Below, one piece after another: positions 1 to 54,771 of a stretch of DNA of 64,000 bases. A model generated the notes under the pieces. That model was not told where the DNA came from, made no database searches, and was given only the letters and a program-made list of their open reading frames with translations. The stretch covers positions 1 through 64,000 of the forward strand of contig JBGFSC010000021.1 of assembly GCA_041694815.1 (NCBI GenBank), written 5' to 3'. Position 1 is the stretch's first letter, and every line of letters starts with the position of its first letter. The stretch comes from Elusimicrobiota bacterium (lineage in GTDB: Bacteria; Elusimicrobiota; Elusimicrobia; UBA1565; JACRDR01). Position numbers and translations under genes: made by a program.

Positions 1-127
1 TGTCACGAATTCGCGTTCTGTCAGGGAGTGCTTGCGCCTCATTCTTTTTAATTCTTTAAACGACATCCAACAGATTTCTCGTTCTTTCGGTAGGTGGTAA
101 CGATGTGCCCGACGAGTTCTATCCAAA

Positions 128-168
128 TAGGCCCTTAGGCCCCCGGCGGCATAGGCCTTTCGCACCTG
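128..168. promoter_or_regulatory. Tandem GGNCC-N3-GGNCC-type palindromic motif (site A)
   Basis: TAGGCCCTTAGGCCC at 128 and TAGGCCTTTCGCACC at 152, 24 bp apart, upstream of CDS 202. Confidence 0.55.
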
Positions 169-201
169 TAAAAAAGCCTGACGCGGGCCCACCCTTAGGG
201 C

Positions 202-1410
202 ATGAGCGCCATCAAACGCCTGGCCGCGGTACTGACCGCGGCGGCGGTCCTACCCCCCTTCGCCCTCGGGGACGATTCATTCGACAAGCTTCACGCCAAT
301 CCGCGCGAGGCGGTGGTCAATTACGAGGGAGTCAAGGTCAGCGGCCGGGCGGCCATGTACTATAAGGAAGTCCACCGCATGGCCGACGAGCTCAAGTCCC
401 GGGGGCTCGACCTTCGGGAGAGCCTCGACGTCATGGACGACAGCTACGCCGCGGTGTGGGCCAAACTCAGCGTCATCGAAGCCGTCTCCAAGAGCCGTAA
501 CGTCGACCGGCATAACACCCATCTCGAGCAGACCCTGATGTGGGTCGACGGCGTGATGCGCGATCGCGGCAGAAACGTCGCCATCCATACCCATCAGGTC
601 TTTTTCCACCACGCCAAGAACCCCCAGTCCGAGATCAACGAGGGCATCCGCCGCATGGGCAAGACAATCGAAGAGCTCGTCGAGAACCTGGGGAGCGGCG
701 GCAAGGCGGAGGAGAAGCTCGGGAGAATCGACGAGGTGATCCTGGGATTCGACACGCGCGGGCATGAGCCGATCAAACAGTACTTGAAGGGCCAGGAGCT
801 GCAGATCGCCGCAAAGCACGGAAAGCGTTTTCGTTTCGTCTACGTCGACGAGCTCGTCCGGGTCCCTTCGGATACGCAGGCGATGCGCGCCGAGCTCAAC
901 GCCCTGACGGCGCGCTACCGGGGCCAGGGCCTGCAGAAGATCATCGAGGGAGTCATCTACAGCCGCTACGTGGGGGTTCTGCTCGAACTCAAATCCATCG
1001 AATACTTCCTCCAACGGGGCTATGCCGTGCTTCAAAGCGGGCGCGAGCTCTTCGACGCCGAGGGGATGTATATCACCGAGTTGGACGCGGTGGTGCGCGG
1101 CCCCGAGGGCCGAATCGGGATCGTCGAGGCCAAGTCGGCGCGGGTACCGATCCCCCTGGAGCAGGCGTTGGCCGACAAGGTCCTCTACAAGCTCGAGACC
1201 TACGCCAAGCACCGCGCGGCTCTGGAGTCCGCCGTCGGATCCAAGCTCGACGATGTTTTCTTCACCTTCGACGTGGGCTGCGACAACGAGGCGCTGCCGC
1301 CTTTTCTCTCCAGGCGCGAATCGGAGCTTTCGAAGCAATACGCCCTAAATGTCAAGTTCCTTTTCCTGCACAGCGATCCGCAGCCCTGCGCCGAAGCCCG
1401 CCGTCGTTGA
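202..1410 (+). CDS. Exported hypothetical protein with a C-terminal PD-(D/E)XK nuclease-like motif
   Basis: 402-aa ORF; N-terminal signal peptide (MSAIKRLAAVLTAAAVLPPFALG); motif ELDAVV...GIVEAKS. Confidence 0.65.
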   Translation: MSAIKRLAAVLTAAAVLPPFALGDDSFDKLHANPREAVVNYEGVKVSGRAAMYYKEVHRMADELKSRGLDLRESLDVMDDSYAAVWAKLSVIEAVSKSRNVDRHNTHLEQTLMWVDGVMRDRGRNVAIHTHQVFFHHAKNPQSEINEGIRRMGKTIEELVENLGSGGKAEEKLGRIDEVILGFDTRGHEPIKQYLKGQELQIAAKHGKRFRFVYVDELVRVPSDTQAMRAELNALTARYRGQGLQKIIEGVIYSRYVGVLLELKSIEYFLQRGYAVLQSGRELFDAEGMYITELDAVVRGPEGRIGIVEAKSARVPIPLEQALADKVLYKLETYAKHRAALESAVGSKLDDVFFTFDVGCDNEALPPFLSRRESELSKQYALNVKFLFLHSDPQPCAEARRR

Positions 1411-1431
1411 TTATTGTATAATCCGCTCGTT

Positions 1432-1504
1432 GAGCCCGTAGCTCAGTTGGTAGAGCACCTGACTTTTAATCAGGTTGTCGTGGGTTCGAGTCCCACCGGG
1501 CTCA
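1432..1504 (+). tRNA. tRNA-Lys(UUU)
   Basis: Canonical cloverleaf; anticodon arm CCTGA-CTTTTAA-TCAGG; GTTCGAG T-loop; TATAAT at 1417-1422 upstream. Confidence 0.97.
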
Positions 1505-1526
1505 ATGTTTCTGTATCCGGTCTTCC

Positions 1527-1598
1527 GGCCCTATCGTCTATCGGCTAGGACGCGTCCCTTTCAAGGACGAAAGAGGGGTTCGACTCCCCTTAGGGCCA
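1527..1598 (+). tRNA. tRNA-Glu(UUC)
   Basis: Acceptor GGCCCTA/TAGGGCC; anticodon arm CGTCC-CTTTCAA-GGACG. Confidence 0.95.
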
Positions 1599-1616
1599 TT
1601 CTTAACCGTCTATCAG

Positions 1617-1644
1617 GGAACTAATTCTTTGCTCGTTCGTATAT
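1617..1644 (+). promoter_or_regulatory. Putative ECF-sigma promoter of atypical tRNA 1
   Basis: GGAACT(1617-1622)-N15-CGTATAT(1638-1644); same boxes and spacing at 2952-2925 on the minus strand. Confidence 0.65.
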
Positions 1645-1654
1645 TAATTAGACC

Positions 1655-1725
1655 TGCGGGGTAGTTCAACGGTAGAACGGTCGACCGTCAATCGGACAAT
1701 GTGGGTTCGACTCCCACCCCCGCAG
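1655..1725 (+). tRNA. Atypical tRNA, anticodon GUC (Asp) on a tRNA-Asn-like body
   Basis: Acceptor TGCGGGG/CCCCGCA, G73; D arm GTTC/GAAC; T arm GTGGG-TTCGACT-CCCAC; loop CCGTCAA has C33 instead of U33; weak anticodon stem. Confidence 0.8.
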
Positions 1726-1731
1726 CGTCCA

Positions 1732-1771
1732 GAAAGCCGCAATTTCCGTAACGGTCGATATTGCGGCTTTC
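1732..1771 (+). other. Trailer hairpin of atypical tRNA 1
   Basis: GAAAGCCGCAAT/ATTGCGGCTTTC 12-bp inverted repeat with a 16-nt loop partly complementary to the anticodon arm. Confidence 0.75.
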
Positions 1772-1778
1772 GGCCTTC

Positions 1779-1807
1779 TTGACCACTATAGAAGAGTCTG
1801 CTAAGCT
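1779..1807 (+). promoter_or_regulatory. Sigma70-type promoter of small RNA 1
   Basis: TTGACC-N17-TAAGCT with TG extended -10. Confidence 0.7.
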
Positions 1808-1813
1808 ATTGCT

Positions 1814-1868
1814 GACGGTCGACTTGTTGAACTACCGGGCCCCGGGCAACCGGGGCCTTCGTTTTTCT
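1814..1868 (+). ncRNA. Small RNA antisense to atypical tRNA 1
   Basis: 1813-1823 complements tRNA 1680-1690; 1826-1836 complements tRNA 1660-1670; ends in GGCCCCGG-GCAA-CCGGGGCC plus T-tract terminator. Confidence 0.75.
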
Positions 1869-1964
1869 GTGGCGAATAGCGTGCCTTACTCCGGACGCAG
1901 CGATTTCCGGCTGCGACCCAATGCCTTCAGACAGTTGTATAATGACGGGTCGCAGCGCCCAGGC

Positions 1965-2312
1965 ATGGACATCCGACTCGTTAAAACGCCCATCCCCTTT
2001 TCGGAAGTCGCGCAATTCGCCAAAAGCCAGTTCGGCGAAATGATCAAGGCGACGGTCGACGTCCAACGGGCGGTATTGGCCCTCGGGGGAGAGCTCCATT
2101 CCGACGAGGAGGCCCTATTGATCGAGGACGGCTCCAGGCAAGAGGATCTCTGGGGAATCAACATTTACCCGGAACAGTCCGGAGAGGATCGAGTCGAATT
2201 CGACTCGATGATCAACGTCAGGCCCTCGCAAAATAACCGCTCCCGCGGCGTGGAGAACGCCGAAACGAGGGCGCGCATCCTGGAAATCGTCGGCCGACTG
2301 CTCCTCTCCTGA
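1965..2312 (+). CDS. DUF5674-like hypothetical protein
   Basis: Recognised motifs KATVDV...GGELHSD.E..L...GS.QEDLWGINIYP...FDSMINVRPSQNNRSR; ATG at 1965; TATAAT about 22 nt upstream. Confidence 0.75.
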   Translation: MDIRLVKTPIPFSEVAQFAKSQFGEMIKATVDVQRAVLALGGELHSDEEALLIEDGSRQEDLWGINIYPEQSGEDRVEFDSMINVRPSQNNRSRGVENAETRARILEIVGRLLLS

Positions 2313-2635
2313 TGGCCCAGCACGCGGACTTGGCGGCGGGCCGTTGGGCGACGCTCTCCTTACTGGAGCAGATGGGAAATATCGGAAGCGAGATTAGCCG
2401 GGCCCGGCGTTGGCAGTCGAGGGACCCGAAGCTTTTCGACGGCGCGATGATACGCGCGCTCGAATTGCTGGACCTGTCCATCGGCGACCCTCGCTGGCGG
2501 CGCCGACTCAAGGAGTTGCTGCGGGCCCGGGAGCTGCTCTGCGACGCCTGGCTCGGCGGCATGGAATATCAAACGGATCTAGAAGGGCTGGACCGCTACT
2601 TCTTCCACTTCGCCGTTGCGGCCAGGAACTCCTGA
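2312..2635 (+). CDS. Small helical hypothetical protein, partner of the DUF5674-like gene
   Basis: 107 aa, TGATG-coupled; motif RW..LSLLEQMGNIGSEISRA. Confidence 0.75.
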   Translation: MAQHADLAAGRWATLSLLEQMGNIGSEISRARRWQSRDPKLFDGAMIRALELLDLSIGDPRWRRRLKELLRARELLCDAWLGGMEYQTDLEGLDRYFFHFAVAARNS

Positions 2636-2651
2636 GCTAAGGGGCGTAATC

Positions 2652-2708
2652 AAAACTAAGAAGGGCTTCGGTTTTCCCGAAGCCCTCGGTCGTCTAAGGC
2701 TGCCTCTC
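2652..2708 (-). ncRNA. Small RNA antisense to atypical tRNA 2
   Basis: TTGAGAGGCAGC (2710-2699) and TTAGACGAC (2697-2689) complement tRNA segments 2889-2878 and 2908-2900; ends in AGGGCTTCGG-GAAAA-CCGAAGCCCT plus T-rich tail. Confidence 0.75.
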
Positions 2709-2714
2709 AATGCT

Positions 2715-2742
2715 AGTTTAGCAGATCGCCCACATAAGTCAA
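2715..2742 (-). promoter_or_regulatory. Sigma70-type promoter of small RNA 2
   Basis: TTGACT-N16-TAAACT with TG extended -10; shares TCTGCTAARCT with the promoter at 1797-1807. Confidence 0.7.
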
Positions 2743-2796
2743 TATTTTTAATAGGGCGAGTGCTCTGTGCCGTGAACAGACTCGAAGATGGCAGTC

Positions 2797-2837
2797 GGAA
2801 CCGATCAATCTGCCCCCTTACAGCCATGATCGGCTCC
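2797..2837 (-). other. Trailer hairpin of atypical tRNA 2
   Basis: GGAGCCGATCA/TGATCGGTTCC 11-bp stem (one GU) with a 19-nt loop near-complementary to the anticodon arm. Confidence 0.7.
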
Positions 2838-2843
2838 ATAAGG

Positions 2844-2913
2844 CTGGGAGGCCGGGATTCGAACCCGGATAGGCTGTTTGAGAGGCAGCTGTCTTACCGT
2901 TAGACGACTCCCA
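2844..2913 (-). tRNA. Atypical tRNA, anticodon CUC (Glu) on a tRNA-Gln-like body
   Basis: TGGGAG-TC-GTCT-AACGGTA-AGAC-A-GCTGC-CTCTCAA-ACAGC-CTAT-CCGGG-TTCGAAT-CCCGG-CCTCCCA-G; 5' acceptor strand one nt short; C:A mismatch closes the anticodon stem. Confidence 0.78.
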
Positions 2914-2924
2914 GACCCACCTCG

Positions 2925-2952
2925 ATATACGAATAACTCCGCAAAAAGTTCC
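2925..2952 (-). promoter_or_regulatory. Putative ECF-sigma promoter of atypical tRNA 2
   Basis: GGAACT-N15-CGTATAT on the minus strand. Confidence 0.65.
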
Positions 2953-2976
2953 ATCCTCTCGTTGCGTCTGAGCCAA

Positions 2977-3059
2977 TAGGTCCTTAGGCCTATCTTCTGG
3001 TAGGCCCTTTCCCTTAGCTTCTTTTCCCTAAAGGCCCCTGCCCCTGGGCCCCGCGTACC
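2977..3059. promoter_or_regulatory. Tandem GGNCC-N3-GGNCC-type motif (site B)
   Basis: TAGGTCCTTAGGCCTA at 2977, TAGGCCCTTT at 3001, two weaker units about 22 bp further on; TACTAT at 3063. Confidence 0.55.
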
Positions 3060-3072
3060 GCATACTATCGAC

Positions 3073-5367
3073 ATGAAAATAAGAATCCACTTCCTGTTTA
3101 TATTCGGCTCCCTTTTATTCGGCCTTCTGCAACGCGGCGACGCCCTAGTCCCAAAGACCTGCAACGATGAATTCGCTCGCGGCGTCCGCGCGGGCGCCAA
3201 TACGCTACTTGCATTTAATGTTTCTGGAGAGGAGATATACAACGCGTTTGCCAGCGGAACTCAAATTGAATTTGACCTAGAAAGACAGTATGGCCTTCCC
3301 GAGCATATCCGTCAAAGTCTGCCCGCCGTCTTTGTGATGGCGCTGCACGATGACGAATATTACCAAGGGGTACTACGGTGCCTCGATGCGAAGGGCTATA
3401 AGACCGATAATCTCGTCGCATGGGTTAAAAAATATCGGGATTACACCACCTCGGCGGAAATCAAACAACGCTTGGAGGAGTTGAAGCACCTTCAAGCGCC
3501 AAAAATCGCCGACGTAGCCTTTGATGGTCGCCATCTGACTGCTGAGGAGGCAGCGGCCGTGGCCGCAGGCGCCGAGGGTGGTAAAACACCGAGCCTAAAC
3601 GAATTCTCAATCGACCTGACTTCCATGGCCGCCCAGGGGAAGCTCGACCCGATCGAGGGCAGAAAGAACGAAATCAAGGCATTGGTCCAGATCCTGCTCC
3701 GCCGCAGCAAGCCCAACGCCGTGTTGATCGGCGAGCCGGGAGTCGGCAAGACCGCCATCGTCGAGGGCCTCGCCCAGAAGATCGCCGCCGGCGAGATCCC
3801 GGAACTTGCCGGAAAGCGCGTGATGCAGCTCAACATCGGAGCGCTCATCGCGGGGACGAAATACCGCGGGGAATTCGAAGAACGGGTGCAGAATATCATG
3901 AAGGAACTTAAGGCCAGCCCGGACACCATCGTGTTCATCGATGAGTTCCACACCATCATGGGCGCCGGCGCCGCGGAGGGCGCCGTCGACATCTCCAACC
4001 TGCTTAAGCCAGCGATGGCCCGCGGGGAGATCCAGATCATCGGCGCGACAACCTTGGACGAATTCCGCCGCTTCGTCGAGAAGGATGGGGCCTTGGCTCG
4101 GCGCGTGGAAGGGGTGCGGGTGGACGCCCCGACGCCCGAAGATACCCTCGCGATTCTTAAGCGCCTCAAACCGAATTACGAAAAGCACCACAAGGTGAGC
4201 TACAGCGACGCCGCGCTGGAGGCCGCCGCCCGCACGGCTCCCCGCTACCTGCCGCAGCGGCAGCTGCCCGACAGCGCCATCGACCTGATGGACAAGGCGG
4301 GAAGCCTCGCGCGCACCGCTAAAAAAACCGTAGTCGAAGAGGAGGATATACTGGCCATCCTCGCGCAGATGACCGGAATTCCGGTCGACAAGCTCAGCGT
4401 CGACGAGCAGGAACGGCTGGTCCGCATGGAGGAGCACCTGCGCAAGCGGGTCAAGGGGCAGGAACACGTGATCAAGGCGGTTTCGGAAGCGGTCCGGAGG
4501 GCTTATGCGGGGCTGCGGGTCTCGCAGGGCCCCTTGGCCAGTTTCGTCTTCTTGGGACCCACCGGCGTCGGGAAAACGGAGCTCGCGAAAGCCCTGGCCG
4601 AATTCCTTTTCGGCACGGAAAAGGCGCTTATCCGCGAGGACTTGACGAATTACATGGAGCAACATTCCGTCTCAAAGCTTATCGGCTCGCCTCCCGGCTA
4701 CGTCGGCTACGAGGACGCTCCCTTTACCGAGCGGGTGCGCCAGAAGCCGTTTTCGGTCATCCTGCTCGACGAGCTCGACAAGGCGCATCCCGCGGTGCTC
4801 AACATCCTGCTCCCGGTATTAGACGACGGACATCTGACGGACAGCCATGGCAAGACCGTCGATTTCAAGAACACGATCATCATCATGACCTCCAATCATA
4901 TGAGCCAGGCCTTTTTCGCGAAGAAGACGAAATCAGTGGGCTTCCAAAAAGCCGAGCCCCCCGCGCCGCCTAAGGCGGCAAGCAAGGAAGCGATCGTGGC
5001 CGGCTTTAAGAGTTTCCTTAAACCCGAGCAGTTTAACCGCATCGACGAGGTCGTCGTGTTCAATACCTTGACGCCGGAGATACTCGAGTCCATCCTGGAC
5101 CAAATGATCTCGTCGTTCGTCGCGGAGCTGGAGAAAACGAAGAAGGTCCGCTTAGAAGTGAGCCCGCAGGCGCGGGCATTCCTTATCCAACAGGGCTACG
5201 ACCCCGAATTGGGCGCCCGACCAATGCGCCGGGCGATCCAGACCCAGCTTCTGACGCCGCTGTCGATGGAGATCCTAAAGCCCAAGCACGGCTCGCATCT
5301 TGTCGCCAAGCTCTCGGAGGACGGCGGCAGGATCGTGGTCGTCAGCACGGATGGAGGGCGTCAATGA
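3073..5367 (+). CDS. ClpA/ClpC-type double AAA+ ATPase with a signal peptide and non-canonical N-domain
   Basis: Walker A GEPGVGKT and GPTGVGKT; Walker B FIDEFH and LLDELDK; pore loops KYRG and GYVG; SVGF loop; GARPMRR; no M-domain. Confidence 0.92.
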   Translation: MKIRIHFLFIFGSLLFGLLQRGDALVPKTCNDEFARGVRAGANTLLAFNVSGEEIYNAFASGTQIEFDLERQYGLPEHIRQSLPAVFVMALHDDEYYQGVLRCLDAKGYKTDNLVAWVKKYRDYTTSAEIKQRLEELKHLQAPKIADVAFDGRHLTAEEAAAVAAGAEGGKTPSLNEFSIDLTSMAAQGKLDPIEGRKNEIKALVQILLRRSKPNAVLIGEPGVGKTAIVEGLAQKIAAGEIPELAGKRVMQLNIGALIAGTKYRGEFEERVQNIMKELKASPDTIVFIDEFHTIMGAGAAEGAVDISNLLKPAMARGEIQIIGATTLDEFRRFVEKDGALARRVEGVRVDAPTPEDTLAILKRLKPNYEKHHKVSYSDAALEAAARTAPRYLPQRQLPDSAIDLMDKAGSLARTAKKTVVEEEDILAILAQMTGIPVDKLSVDEQERLVRMEEHLRKRVKGQEHVIKAVSEAVRRAYAGLRVSQGPLASFVFLGPTGVGKTELAKALAEFLFGTEKALIREDLTNYMEQHSVSKLIGSPPGYVGYEDAPFTERVRQKPFSVILLDELDKAHPAVLNILLPVLDDGHLTDSHGKTVDFKNTIIIMTSNHMSQAFFAKKTKSVGFQKAEPPAPPKAASKEAIVAGFKSFLKPEQFNRIDEVVVFNTLTPEILESILDQMISSFVAELEKTKKVRLEVSPQARAFLIQQGYDPELGARPMRRAIQTQLLTPLSMEILKPKHGSHLVAKLSEDGGRIVVVSTDGGRQ

Positions 5368-6095
5368 GCGCGCTAAAGGCCGTGTCGCTCGCGATATTTC
5401 TGGCGTCGAGCCTCACCATGCCGGGATTCTCCCAATTCGAAGGTGATGTGATCAATATTCCACTTATACTTACGCCGGAAGAAGAATTTACCCTAGCCAT
5501 GAAGCGCTGGTTACGGGGGCGTGATATTCCCATCGTCAATCCTCCCGAAGAATTGATCGGTGTCTGGAATCTCAGCGCCCAGATATGGAGGATCCGAAGC
5601 AAGCACGAGCGTTCAGGAGACTTTCCTACGGAACGGGAAGAAGGTTCCACTCTCATCAGCCAGCACTGGGGCTGCCTGCGCTTCGTTCCCGCTCGGCACC
5701 CGGGAAACTTGACGGATCAAAATCGGTACGTTCAAGTCGGCGTCGGTTCCAACCTGGTCCCGAATCGCGACCTCGGGCGCAACGAATTTTTCAGTAACCT
5801 GACCGGAACGCGCTACGATTGCGGCGAGCATCTTAGCTTCGCCACGAACTTTGTCCCGAACAGCATCGATGACGCCTGGAGGAACCTTTTTATTTTCTCG
5901 GTGCCCGGTGACGAGATGAGGTTCGGCTGCCGCTTCCTCTCGGAATCCCAAGAGCGCATCGGCTGCCTCGTCAATTATCGCAACGGCACGCACGGGATCG
6001 TCGAATACGTGCGCGAGCAGCCCGGCGAAAAGGCCGCGCGTCGCGGCAGAAGCAGCAACTTCCTGCGGGTCCACCCCGACTGGCAGCCCGAATAA
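5364..6095 (+). CDS. Exported hypothetical protein
   Basis: 243 aa, ATGA overlap with the clp gene, N-terminal signal peptide. Confidence 0.65.
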   Translation: MSALKAVSLAIFLASSLTMPGFSQFEGDVINIPLILTPEEEFTLAMKRWLRGRDIPIVNPPEELIGVWNLSAQIWRIRSKHERSGDFPTEREEGSTLISQHWGCLRFVPARHPGNLTDQNRYVQVGVGSNLVPNRDLGRNEFFSNLTGTRYDCGEHLSFATNFVPNSIDDAWRNLFIFSVPGDEMRFGCRFLSESQERIGCLVNYRNGTHGIVEYVREQPGEKAARRGRSSNFLRVHPDWQPE

Positions 6096-53759: not shown

Positions 53760-54771
53760 TGGTGCCAGGCATCCACTTTCTACACTTTCTCAACTTTTGG
53801 AACTTTTAGGCCTCCTCATTCGTACTTGAGGTATGGGCCGCCAACCGAGACTGCATTTCCCCGGAGCTATCTTCCATGTGAGCGCCCGCGGCAATGGACG
53901 ACAGACTATCTTTTTTGATTCTCAAGACTGGAACAAGTTTCTTGATATTCTAGGCGAATTAAAACGAATCCGTCCCTTCAAGCTTTACGCTTACTGCCTT
54001 ATGGGCAATCATATCCATTTGCTGATCGAACCTTCTGGTCCCAAATTGTCCCTAATTATGGGCTTATTACTTGCGCGTTATGCCAAGTACCTTAACGCCA
54101 GATTTAAGCGCAACGGGCATGTTTTTCAGAATCGATTTCATGCGCGTCTTTGTGGAAAAGACTCTTATTTCCAACAAGTCATCCGATATATTCATTTAAA
54201 TCCCGTAGAGGCGGGACTTGCCGATGAACCGTCACGGTGGCCGTACTCGGGACACCTGGAATATCTCGGAAAATCTACCCGCCATCTTATCGATCAGGAA
54301 CAGCTTTTATCAATGTTGGGCTCTGATATTAGAACGGCACGGGCCGCCTATAGCCAATTTGTCTTGGGTGCGTTAAAAGACGATTATCTTTCTGTGGGCG
54401 AGACCGAGGACTTATCCAACGCTCGCGAATCTGACATTCACTTTAAAGCCGTCCAAGTCCATGTTAACGAGAAAAGTCTAGATGAAATTTGCGCGGAATT
54501 TAAGCCGATCTCATTGGAAATACTGCGAAGCTCGAGCAAGGTACGGACGGTTTGTCGCGCTCGACATCGTTTTATCGCCTGTGCTTTTGCGGCAGGCTAT
54601 TCGCTCACTGAAGTCGCGGCCTATCTTGGATTATCTTTGTCTGCGGTTTCAAAAGCACTAAACACCAAAGAACCTAAGGCTTGCCTGAGATCAGCTAATC
54701 GAATTTATGTGGACGACGGCAGGCAGCTATTAGAAAGTCAATAAAGTGTAGAAAGTGGATGCCTGGCACCA
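53760..54771. mobile_element. Y1-transposase element bounded by perfect 29-bp inverted repeats
   Basis: TGGTGCCAGGCATCCACTTTCTACACTTT at 53760-53788, reverse complement at 54743-54771; visibly AT-richer than the flanks. Confidence 0.85.
53833..54744 (+). CDS. RAYT-like HUH (Y1) transposase with a C-terminal HTH
   Basis: FHVSARGN, AYCLMGNHIHLL, GHVFQNRF, YIHLNPVEAGL, WPYS. Confidence 0.92.
   Translation: MGRQPRLHFPGAIFHVSARGNGRQTIFFDSQDWNKFLDILGELKRIRPFKLYAYCLMGNHIHLLIEPSGPKLSLIMGLLLARYAKYLNARFKRNGHVFQNRFHARLCGKDSYFQQVIRYIHLNPVEAGLADEPSRWPYSGHLEYLGKSTRHLIDQEQLLSMLGSDIRTARAAYSQFVLGALKDDYLSVGETEDLSNARESDIHFKAVQVHVNEKSLDEICAEFKPISLEILRSSSKVRTVCRARHRFIACAFAAGYSLTEVAAYLGLSLSAVSKALNTKEPKACLRSANRIYVDDGRQLLESQ

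Follow-up and report, generated by a model that had tools for sequence, protein, structure and literature searches.

A small RNA gene predicted to be antisense to a neighbouring non-canonical tRNA in an Elusimicrobiota genome and its relatives

Introduction

Why would a bacterium keep, directly behind a tRNA gene, a second small gene whose product is predicted to be antisense to that tRNA, across the anticodon itself? The question is raised by one end of a stretch of 64,000 nucleotides (nt) from an Elusimicrobiota bacterium (NCBI GenBank assembly GCA_041694815.1, contig JBGFSC010000021.1, positions 1 to 64,000 of the forward strand), which was analysed as a whole and is called the window below. 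An earlier note, made from the letters of the window alone, had described a small RNA (sRNA) gene at positions 1779 to 1868 whose product would clamp the preceding tRNA at two sites. The two genes are referred to here as tRNA 1 and sRNA 1 and together as unit 1; a similar pair nearby is unit 2. Comparison of the sequences of relatives settles, through covariation, that the complementarity between tRNA and sRNA is not a matter of chance, and the pair may act as an antisense off-switch for an unusual, stress-induced tRNA.

Pairing of sRNA 1 with tRNA 1

The gene of tRNA 1 (1655..1725, plus strand) is followed on the same strand by that of sRNA 1, a predicted RNA of about 55 nt that starts about 90 nt downstream of the tRNA. 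The seed of sRNA 1, TGACGGTCGAC (1813..1823, plus strand), is, as the earlier note had it, the exact reverse complement of tRNA bases 1680-1690, which comprise the 5' strand of the anticodon stem together with C32, C33, the anticodon GUC and A37. A second clamp, GTTGAACTACC (1826..1836, plus strand), is likewise an exact reverse complement, of bases 1660-1670, and its target covers the end of the 5' strand of the acceptor stem, positions 8-9, the 5' strand of the D stem and the start of the D loop. The dinucleotide TT (1824-1825) links the two segments over the nine skipped tRNA bases (1671-1679). The Asp codon GAC, which had been singled out as the start of the sRNA, does begin at the seventh base after the -10 element (G1814); a start with the cognate codon follows from the antisense relation to the anticodon and does not count as a feature of its own. 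A perfect 12-nt palindrome, ACGGTCGACCGT, lies in the anticodon arm of tRNA 1 (1677-1688), because of which the seed is partly identical as well as complementary to the arm.

A sigma70-type promoter was read in the sequence directly before the seed (1779..1807, plus strand), with the -35 element TTGACC (1779-1784), a 17-nt spacer and the extended -10 element TGCTAAGCT (1799-1807), so that transcription of sRNA 1 is predicted to start near the seed. The promoter was not called by a strict-consensus promoter scan, because its -10 element agrees with TATAAT at only three of six positions. The GCAA-tetraloop terminator that the earlier note had placed directly after the second clamp was called by a terminator scan (1837..1868, plus strand); its hairpin, GGGCCCCGG-GCAA-CCGGGGCCT, occupies 1837-1858 and is followed by the U run, TCGTTTTT. 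Near-identical terminator hairpins of the form GGCCCCGG-GNRA-CCGGGGCC were seen across many genomes of the order. A scan of positions 1-6000 against Rfam 15 at E ≤ 1 returned no family besides tRNAs and one sub-threshold chance match, on the antisense strand of the tRNA-Lys at 1432-1505.

The earlier note had suggested ranking the sRNA against all tRNAs of the genome. With its first 25 nt, sRNA 1 placed its neighbour tRNA 1 first of the 48 tRNAs called by ARAGORN, at -39.3 kcal/mol, compared with -23.0 kcal/mol for the runner-up and a mean of -17.1 (standard deviation 2.6) for the remainder. Cofolding favoured the cognate dimers of units 1 and 2 over the separate folds by free-energy differences of -18.5 and -13.7 kcal/mol, while the crossed pairs gave 0.0 and -1.1; in the modelled tRNA/sRNA dimer the T arm alone survives in the tRNA. 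The 11 letters of the seed are not rare by themselves, with 11 occurrences on both strands of the 2.77-Mb genome (63% G+C), partly because their complement, AAGTCGACCGTCA, spells codons of the Walker-A motif 'GKSTV'. The 11-mer of the second clamp occurs three times in the genome, in every case inside the tRNA/sRNA system. The Walker-A overlap also gives 12-13-nt complements of the seed in several ATPase genes, which is probably a coincidence.

Conservation and covariation in relatives

Related units were recognised by the motif that precedes tRNA 1, GGAAC-N16-CGTAT (1617..1642, plus strand), which was read in the sequence as a putative promoter of the extracytoplasmic function (ECF) sigma type. 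Forty distinct tRNAs preceded by this motif were collected; 37 belong to units in genomes of the same order, patchily distributed and multi-copy, and three are ordinary tRNAs from elsewhere, which served as negative controls. The pairing analyses used the 36 in-order units with at least 150 nt of downstream sequence.

When each tRNA was compared with its own downstream 330 nt, the longest reverse-complement match was 8-17 nt long and lay on the anticodon arm in 33 of the 36 units. The D-arm clamp was the longest match in L003 and L005, accompanied by a 9-10-nt match on the anticodon arm, and L018 had an imperfect match only. For the three control tRNAs the longest match was 6-7 nt and fell at unrelated places. 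The mean match length was 11.8 nt for cognate and 6.3 nt for non-cognate combinations of the 36 units.

The pairing was maintained while its sequence changed. Each column of tRNA positions 27-36 was paired in 88-100% of the units, with two to six types of pair per column, and compensatory (two-sided) changes were found in all ten columns; the 36 units carried 35 distinct target segments. The paired fraction over these positions was 0.958 in register and 0.24-0.48 when the partner was slid by 1-3 positions. Over positions 27-37 it was 0.934, as against 0.671 ± 0.017 for permuted partners (maximum 0.735 in 1000 permutations). The anticodon stem itself kept four or five of its five pairs in 33 of the 37 units, again with covariation, which means that the cloverleaf is kept and, on this evidence, that the tRNA fold of the family is real and under selection.

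A sigma70-type promoter stood before the antisense segment in 25 of the 36 units (TTGAC-like, 16-17-nt spacer, TAnnnT, usually with TGn; consensus TTGACA-16/17-TGnTAnACT), and the first complementary base lies 3-7 nt (mode 6) downstream of the -10 element, where the 5' end of the RNA is predicted to be. An exact match of at least 8 nt to the D arm and acceptor was found in 11 of the 36 units, compared with 9% of non-cognate pairs; a G-U-tolerant score over 10-nt windows, which gave no separation (8.8 for cognate, 8.3 for non-cognate), was replaced by these exact matches. By sequence, then, the clamp on the anticodon arm defines the family, and the D-arm clamp is facultative, a common option and not the rule.

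The same arrangement was recovered without reference to the tRNA. Ten loci were found in metagenomes by searching with the sRNA promoter and terminator only, and seven of them (six distinct sequences) carried an upstream tRNA, called by ARAGORN, that has the ECF motif and is complementary to the sRNA over 9-17 nt. In one of these units G34 is replaced by A, giving an A34 anticodon, and the change is matched by the corresponding change in the sRNA. The other loci were two orphan sRNA genes (L203 and L208) and one with too little upstream sequence.

An orphan copy also exists in the genome of the window itself (contig C19:20738-20792, minus strand; locus L077), with a TTGACA-17-TATATT promoter and a terminator. 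Its product ranks tRNA 1 first among the tRNAs of the genome and differs from sRNA 1 at two bases of the seed, with an identical D-arm clamp. An Rfam scan around it found no tRNA remnant, the only hit being a sub-threshold chance match to sX12 (19 bits vs 106). A 13-nt inverted copy of a tRNA T arm lies just upstream of this orphan gene, and its seed fits the anticodon stem of unit L035 (relative G097), as if the partner tRNA had been lost. The sRNA of the earlier note, predicted to be transcribed on its own and to pair at two sites, is supported by the promoter, the covariation, the orphan copy and the cognate cofolding, with the restriction that its second site is not general in the family.

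Identity of the tRNA and the second unit

Both tRNA 1 and tRNA 2 were called by ARAGORN and matched the Rfam tRNA model (cmscan, RF00005) with 58.7 and 45.0 bits, respectively, against a gathering score of 29, and both have the standard 7/5 acceptor/T branch and a class I body. tRNA 1, with the anticodon GUC, has a U1-A72 pair, G73, C32-C33 ahead of the anticodon, a 7-nt D loop (AACGGUA), a 4-nt variable loop and no encoded CCA. Its anticodon loop reads CCGUCAA, with C at position 33 in place of the canonical U33 of RF00005 elongators. A housekeeping role as tRNA-Asp was rejected on the U1-A72 pair, the 7-nt D loop and the absence of CCA, and because the canonical tRNA-Asp of the genome lies on another contig (C6:44454-44532), with G1-C72, a long D loop and an encoded CCA. 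The nearest tRNAs of the same genome are tRNA-Asn (70% identity) and tRNA-Gln(CUG) (64%); the first eight do not include the canonical tRNA-Asp. No match to tRNA 1 was found in five other genomes sampled from the same family by a BLAST-type search and the strict pattern described below; a looser pattern found a unit with a GCC anticodon in one of the five (G004). The earlier note was therefore right about the pairing partner, which is nevertheless not the ordinary tRNA-Asp of the cell: it is an accessory, non-canonical tRNA behind an ECF-type promoter.

Across the 37 units the anticodon is GUC in 24, CUC in four and another in nine (GAC in three, GCU in two, and GCC, GGC, GUA and one odd case); the metagenome units add AUC and GCC. 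Position 33 is U in 23 units, C in 13 and A in one. All the in-order units that were checked keep U1-A72/G73 or close variants.

Between tRNA 1 and the sRNA promoter lies hairpin 1 (1733..1770, plus strand), with an 11-bp stem and a 16-nt loop, which may be the terminator or trailer of the tRNA transcript. Its loop bases 1751-1758, ACGGTCGA, are antisense to tRNA 1 bases 1681-1688, and a hairpin with an antisense loop at this place was recognised by eye in roughly half of the 36 units.

Unit 2 lies on the minus strand and has the same order of parts, beginning with an ECF-type promoter (GGAAC-N16-CGTAT; 2927..2952). Its non-canonical tRNA(CUC), tRNA 2 (2844..2913), also has U1-A72, G73, a short D loop and a 4-nt variable loop, and is followed by its own hairpin 1 (2797..2837, by eye), the loop of which, GGGGGCAG, is imperfectly antisense to the anticodon arm. 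The sigma70-type promoter of sRNA 2 (TTGACT-16-TAAACT with a TG extension; 2715..2742) was called by the promoter scan. sRNA 2 (2650..2710), placed by sequence, cofolding and the terminator scan, carries a seed antisense to the anticodon arm of tRNA 2 (TTGAGAGGCAGC, 2710-2699), a clamp antisense to its D arm (TTAGACGAC, 2697-2689) and a terminator (2687-2661) followed by a U run. The canonical tRNA-Glu(CUC) of the genome is on contig C54. Units 1 and 2 are convergent, with a DUF5674 gene (1965-2309) and an unassigned open reading frame (ORF) of 107 codons (2312-2632) between them.

Proposed function

The reading that we favour, with somewhat better than even confidence, is that the sRNA acts as a private antisense off-switch for a stress-induced tRNA of hybrid identity, including the recoding predicted below; the off-switch as such is well supported in silico. 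The accessory tRNA would be transcribed from its ECF-sigma-type (stress) promoter and the sRNA of about 55 nt from its own sigma70-type promoter. The single-stranded 5' end of the sRNA would nucleate on the 7-nt anticodon loop and then zip into the 5' strand of the anticodon stem, and in unit 1 the second segment would go on to invade the D arm. Such pairing would unfold or sequester the tRNA and take its anticodon out of use, and the duplex may be marked for a double-strand RNase. Because the sRNA promoter is of the housekeeping type and the tRNA promoter of the stress type, a threshold would be the simplest logic: leaky tRNA would be mopped up, and tRNA would be free only when ECF-driven synthesis exceeds the supply of sRNA.

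The hybrid identity can be read from the features that tRNA 1 shares with the substrates of the amidotransferase GatCAB. Its U1-A72 pair and short D loop without positions 20A/20B are those of the tRNA-Gln and tRNA-Asn of the same genome; the canonical Asp and Glu tRNAs have longer D loops. Where GatCAB substrates have the anticodon GUU or YUG, units 1 and 2 have GUC and CUC. The genome is 97.8% complete and contains gatB (573 bits), and neither AsnRS (best asnS match 83 bits vs a cut-off of 343) nor GlnRS (best glnS match 63.5 bits vs a cut-off of 426) was found in it, so that Asn-tRNA and Gln-tRNA would be made by amidation on the tRNA. The identity elements of AspRS are the GUC anticodon and G73. 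With both, tRNA 1 would be aspartylated and then amidated by GatCAB to Asn-tRNA(GUC), delivering Asn at Asp codons; tRNA 2 would become Gln-tRNA(CUC) and deliver Gln at the Glu codon GAG.

According to the available text of Bailly et al. (2006; PMC1635274), bacterial amidotransferases use U1-A72 as a determinant and U20A as an antideterminant and do not read the anticodon, and both tRNAAsn(C36), which has a GUC anticodon, and tRNAAsp(U1-A72, delta-U20A) were amidated at about the wild-type level; the accessible portion of Nakamura et al. (2010; PMC2811023) agrees. Recoding of Asp to Asn and of Glu to Gln is given a moderate probability on these grounds. The code-breaking tRNAs known so far are toxic if they are made constitutively, as far as the accessible text of both reports goes (PMC5389517; PMC10404621), which would explain a double control by stress promoter and antidote. 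A wider version, in which genomes of the order would possess programmable recoding, with amide-type bodies and acid anticodons acting via GatCAB when the ECF sigma factor fires and gated by antisense RNA in unstressed cells, is tentative and in our view doubtful.

Several observations weigh against this reading. Both transcripts of the unit are sequence predictions, and a search for sequencing runs covering positions 1380-3060 found none listed. The strict search pattern biased the set of units towards the GUC type, and the pairing statistics overstate independence, as the registers were picked by best match and the units are related. The cognate sRNA was strictly the best partner in only 22 of the 36 units; in the other 14 this is because kin share stems, which produces ties. 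The pairing of sRNA 2 with the canonical tRNA-Glu(CUC) is fairly good too (-28.8 kcal/mol, as against -33.2 with tRNA 2). The near-universal U33 is replaced by C in tRNA 1 and in 13 of the 37 units, which may weaken decoding, and the nine units with other anticodons, like AUC and GCC in the metagenomes, are not explained by a logic of Asp-to-Asn and Glu-to-Gln. AsnRS and GlnRS exceed the cut-off in two of five multi-copy relatives; GatB does so in four of these relatives, the remaining one having it in two pieces at contig ends. Finally, hairpin 1 often lacks a U run, so the ECF transcript may read through into the sRNA, which would place tRNA and antisense on one precursor.

Alternative explanations

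Of the other explanations, the one that survives best, although it is unlikely, is an RNA-only toxin and antidote or a stress-signal module in which the tRNA would act without correct decoding, either as a poorly charged tRNA in the A site that triggers the stringent response or by tying up a synthetase, EF-Tu, RNase P or a tRNA-cleaving toxin. Such a module would suit the drift of anticodons on one scaffold (GUC, CUC, GCC, GUA, AUC, GCU and GAC), nearly all of them with G34 and reading abundant NNC codons, the frequent C33 and the patchy multi-copy distribution (16 of 101 genomes of the order by the strict pattern, up to five copies). Some neighbouring genes resemble those of HicB antitoxins, and the promoter type is shared with retropepsin-like, HNH and RelE-like genes (in both cases from N-termini read by eye). 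According to the available text of Mukai et al. (2017; PMC5389517), expression of other odd tRNAs has toxic effects, and these tRNAs show an association with toxin-antitoxin genes. A module of this kind would however not need the specificity that is seen, since 28 of the 37 units keep an Asp or Glu anticodon and U1-A72/G73 or close variants are retained, which a generic signal from uncharged tRNA would not require, and no conserved protein partner adjoins the units.

A sponge working in the other direction is rather improbable. The sRNA would then regulate other targets (mRNAs), and the stress-induced tRNA-like RNA would be a decoy that titrates it, much as the tRNA-precursor spacer 3'ETS-leuZ sponges RyhB and RybB in Escherichia coli. 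Mutual titration is symmetrical, so the pairing data fit this equally well, and the constitutive-type promoter on the sRNA with the inducible one on the tRNA, the three orphan sRNA genes without a tRNA (C19, L203 and L208) and the 12-13-nt complements of the sRNA 1 seed elsewhere in the genome would all agree with it. Yet the seed is hypervariable, with 35 distinct target segments in 36 units, and tracks the neighbouring tRNA only, which makes a conserved mRNA target impossible. The extra genomic complements sit in coding regions and stem from the Walker-A 'GKSTV' codons or their antisense strand, and a decoy would not need a complete, covarying cloverleaf with acceptor and T arms.

There is a slim chance that the hairpin-1 loop and the supposed sRNA are parts of one ECF-driven precursor that controls folding or processing of the tRNA in cis. 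About half of the units have another antisense copy in the loop of hairpin 1 (by eye), the hairpin often lacks a U run, which makes read-through plausible, and tRNA and antisense always share a strand and lie about 40-180 nt apart. A precursor of this kind would leave without a role the correctly spaced sigma70-type promoter directly before the antisense segment, which is present in 25 of 36 units and was called by the scan for unit 2, as well as the orphan copies with a promoter and no tRNA, and the single tRNA of L045 with two promoter-equipped sRNAs.

Functionless evolutionary debris, namely an inverted partial duplication of the tRNA or an integration scar, is extremely improbable: tRNA genes are common integration sites and the seed 11-mer is a fairly frequent word of the genome, but compensatory changes keep up the complementarity in 36 units that have 35 different targets, promoter and terminator are conserved, and an integration scar would repeat the 3' end of a tRNA directly and not carry an inverted copy of the 5' half.

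Relation to known systems

The closest parallels to an antisense off-switch are the antisense modules IS10 RNA-OUT/RNA-IN, CopA/CopT, RNAI/RNAII of ColE1 and type I pairs such as hok/Sok, in which a short constitutive RNA meets the hairpin loop of its partner and zips up, the pairs co-evolve and a potentially harmful product is neutralised. By analogy, the units studied here would share with IS10 and with plasmid copy-number control the geometry of loop-first pairing followed by zipping, and the co-evolving private specificities. In IS10 the single-stranded 5' end is on the target, RNA-IN, and the loop on the antisense, RNA-OUT. The targets of those modules are mRNAs or a replication primer, whereas here a whole tRNA cloverleaf would be bound and no peptide is encoded, and the genes stand in tandem on the same strand instead of overlapping on opposite strands. 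A type I toxin-antitoxin system was rejected on the same ground, the target being a tRNA cloverleaf, and because no conserved protein gene accompanies the units.

A likeness to 3'ETS-leuZ of E. coli would lie in the pairing of a tRNA-unit product with a trans-acting sRNA and in the threshold or titration behaviour. In that system the pairing partner is a discarded spacer, and its sRNAs have conserved mRNA regulons and are not known to form private co-evolving pairs; here it is the tRNA body that pairs. A T-box riboswitch (RF00230) was rejected as well, as there was no Rfam match in 1779-1868 at E ≤ 1 and the RNA is about 55 nt long with its own terminator. The pairing moreover covers 11 + 11 nt of the tRNA body and not the acceptor end, and the downstream gene is that for DUF5674.

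With the GatCAB substrates tRNA-Asn and tRNA-Gln, tRNA 1 has in common U1-A72, a short D loop without 20A and G73, from which it differs in the anticodons of the family that read Asp or Glu codons, the ECF-type promoter, the antisense partner and C33. It would be a natural counterpart of the engineered tRNAAsn(C36), which is amidated efficiently according to the accessible text (PMC1635274).

Two families of accessory tRNAs are comparable, as far as the available text of the reports goes. The tRNA-ProX family of Streptomyces depends on a synthetase of its own, ProRSx (Schuntermann et al., 2023; PMC10404621), and the allo-tRNAs have Ser identity, 8/4 or 9/3 acceptor branches and a link to toxin-antitoxin genes (Mukai et al., 2017; PMC5389517). 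Both are accessory and patchy, combine an acceptor identity with a mismatched anticodon, are toxic when expressed constitutively and have been proposed for use under stress. The present tRNAs differ in their ordinary 7/5 cloverleaf and in the predicted mis-acylation through GatCAB, and the 7/5 structure and class I body led to rejection of an allo-tRNA identity. Adaptive use or tolerance of errors in the indirect Asn/Gln pathway is described for GatCAB-dependent mistranslation in mycobacteria (available text of a review, PMC11415595); there weak GatCAB leads in the opposite direction, from Asn to Asp and from Gln to Glu, and that text presents no special tRNA or RNA regulator. The word 'antisense' does not occur in the available text of PMC5389517, PMC10404621 and PMC11415595, and no RNA antidote is described there for tRNA-ProX or the allo-tRNAs.

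In the literature, subscription-only papers and supplements lying outside the search, no account of a tRNA with a dedicated antisense RNA was found. As judged from the sequences, the tRNA/antisense pair is real and strongly supported by covariation, and as far as the searchable literature goes it is undescribed. Small RNAs are known as regulators of mRNAs and as targets of sponging by other RNAs. If the proposed function is correct, control of the decoding machinery would gain a new layer, and a stress promoter combined with an RNA antidote would be a safe way to keep code-breaking tRNAs. Dedicated 'anti-tRNA' sRNAs might then form a general class, overlooked so far, by which natural mistranslating tRNAs are gated. 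The predicted recoding via GatCAB, of Asp codons to Asn and of Glu codons to Gln, would join tRNA-dependent amide synthesis with adaptive mistranslation, and orthogonal tRNA/antisense pairs could serve as parts for the synthetic control of suppressor or recoding tRNAs.

Distribution and the promoter class

A BLAST-type search covering 41 relatives returned several genomes of the same order, with separate matches to the tRNA and to the sRNA end. The strict pattern, the ECF motif with TGCGGGGT, occurred in 16 of the 101 genomes of the order with at most five copies per genome. With a pattern of promoter motif and T loop only, matches were obtained in 27 of 401 genomes from the phylum, concentrated in the order of the window (1 of 1, 13 of 48 and 4 of 10 genomes in its families f1, f2 and f3), with matches at chance level outside it (for example 1 of 118 in f4 and 1 of 89 in f16). 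When 596 Gb of genome contigs were searched with a 17-base promoter and acceptor pattern, only L143, from Elusimicrobia bacterium UBA9639, proved genuine among the 80 examined of at least 120 matches listed; almost all are chance matches because the pattern is too short for such an amount of sequence. Among viral contigs the sRNA pattern gave one locus, which has no tRNA and a 6-nt match and is not a member of the family. Clustering of the ORFs across loci revealed local synteny groups only and no conserved neighbouring protein.

Several units depart from the common form. In L028, L038, L045 (G023) and L143 a conserved insertion of about 65-70 nt, with several alternative hairpins, lies in the T loop between GGGTTCG and AGTCCC, an unusual position for bacterial tRNAs; these genes were not called by ARAGORN, yet the ECF motif and a matching sRNA are present. 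L030 (G042) has two tRNA and sRNA units head to tail, and in L045 one tRNA is followed by two successive promoter-equipped sRNAs. The units L063, L064, L055 and L059-L061 contain ECF-driven tRNAs with their own antisense sRNAs and with GCU or GAC/GGC anticodons; among them, L063 and L064 (G010 and G093) combine an Arg-type D arm (GCUCA..GGAUAGAGC) and a GCU anticodon (Ser AGY) with a class I body. ArgRS reads A20 and C35 and is not known to read position 34, and the GCU-anticodon units of Arg type might carry Arg to Ser codons.

As for the promoter, the loose motif GGAAC-N16-17-CGTAN is not enriched in the genome (67 matches, compared with 80 for the reversed control), and only a tight, T-rich class is meaningful. 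This class comprises about 27 sites of the form GGAACTTTT-N-TCGTA(T/C), most of them with an ATG 7 nt downstream, which suggests leaderless mRNAs. One site heads the gene of an ECF sigma factor on contig C36 (17575-18117; Pfam: Sigma70_r2, 7e-13; r4_2, 1e-14), and because it precedes the sigma gene, GGAAC-N16-CGTAT was read as the probable autoregulated promoter of this factor. Judged from N-termini read by eye, the genes downstream of tight-class sites include four retropepsin-like genes, HNH/DUF222-like genes and an MT-A70-like methylase, and further ones for SpoVG, a RelE-like protein and an IS200/RAYT-like transposase. The tight class looks like the regulon of one ECF sigma factor, rich in accessory genes. 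Inside the window, a site of this class at 53798 lies ahead of the ORF at 53833-54744.

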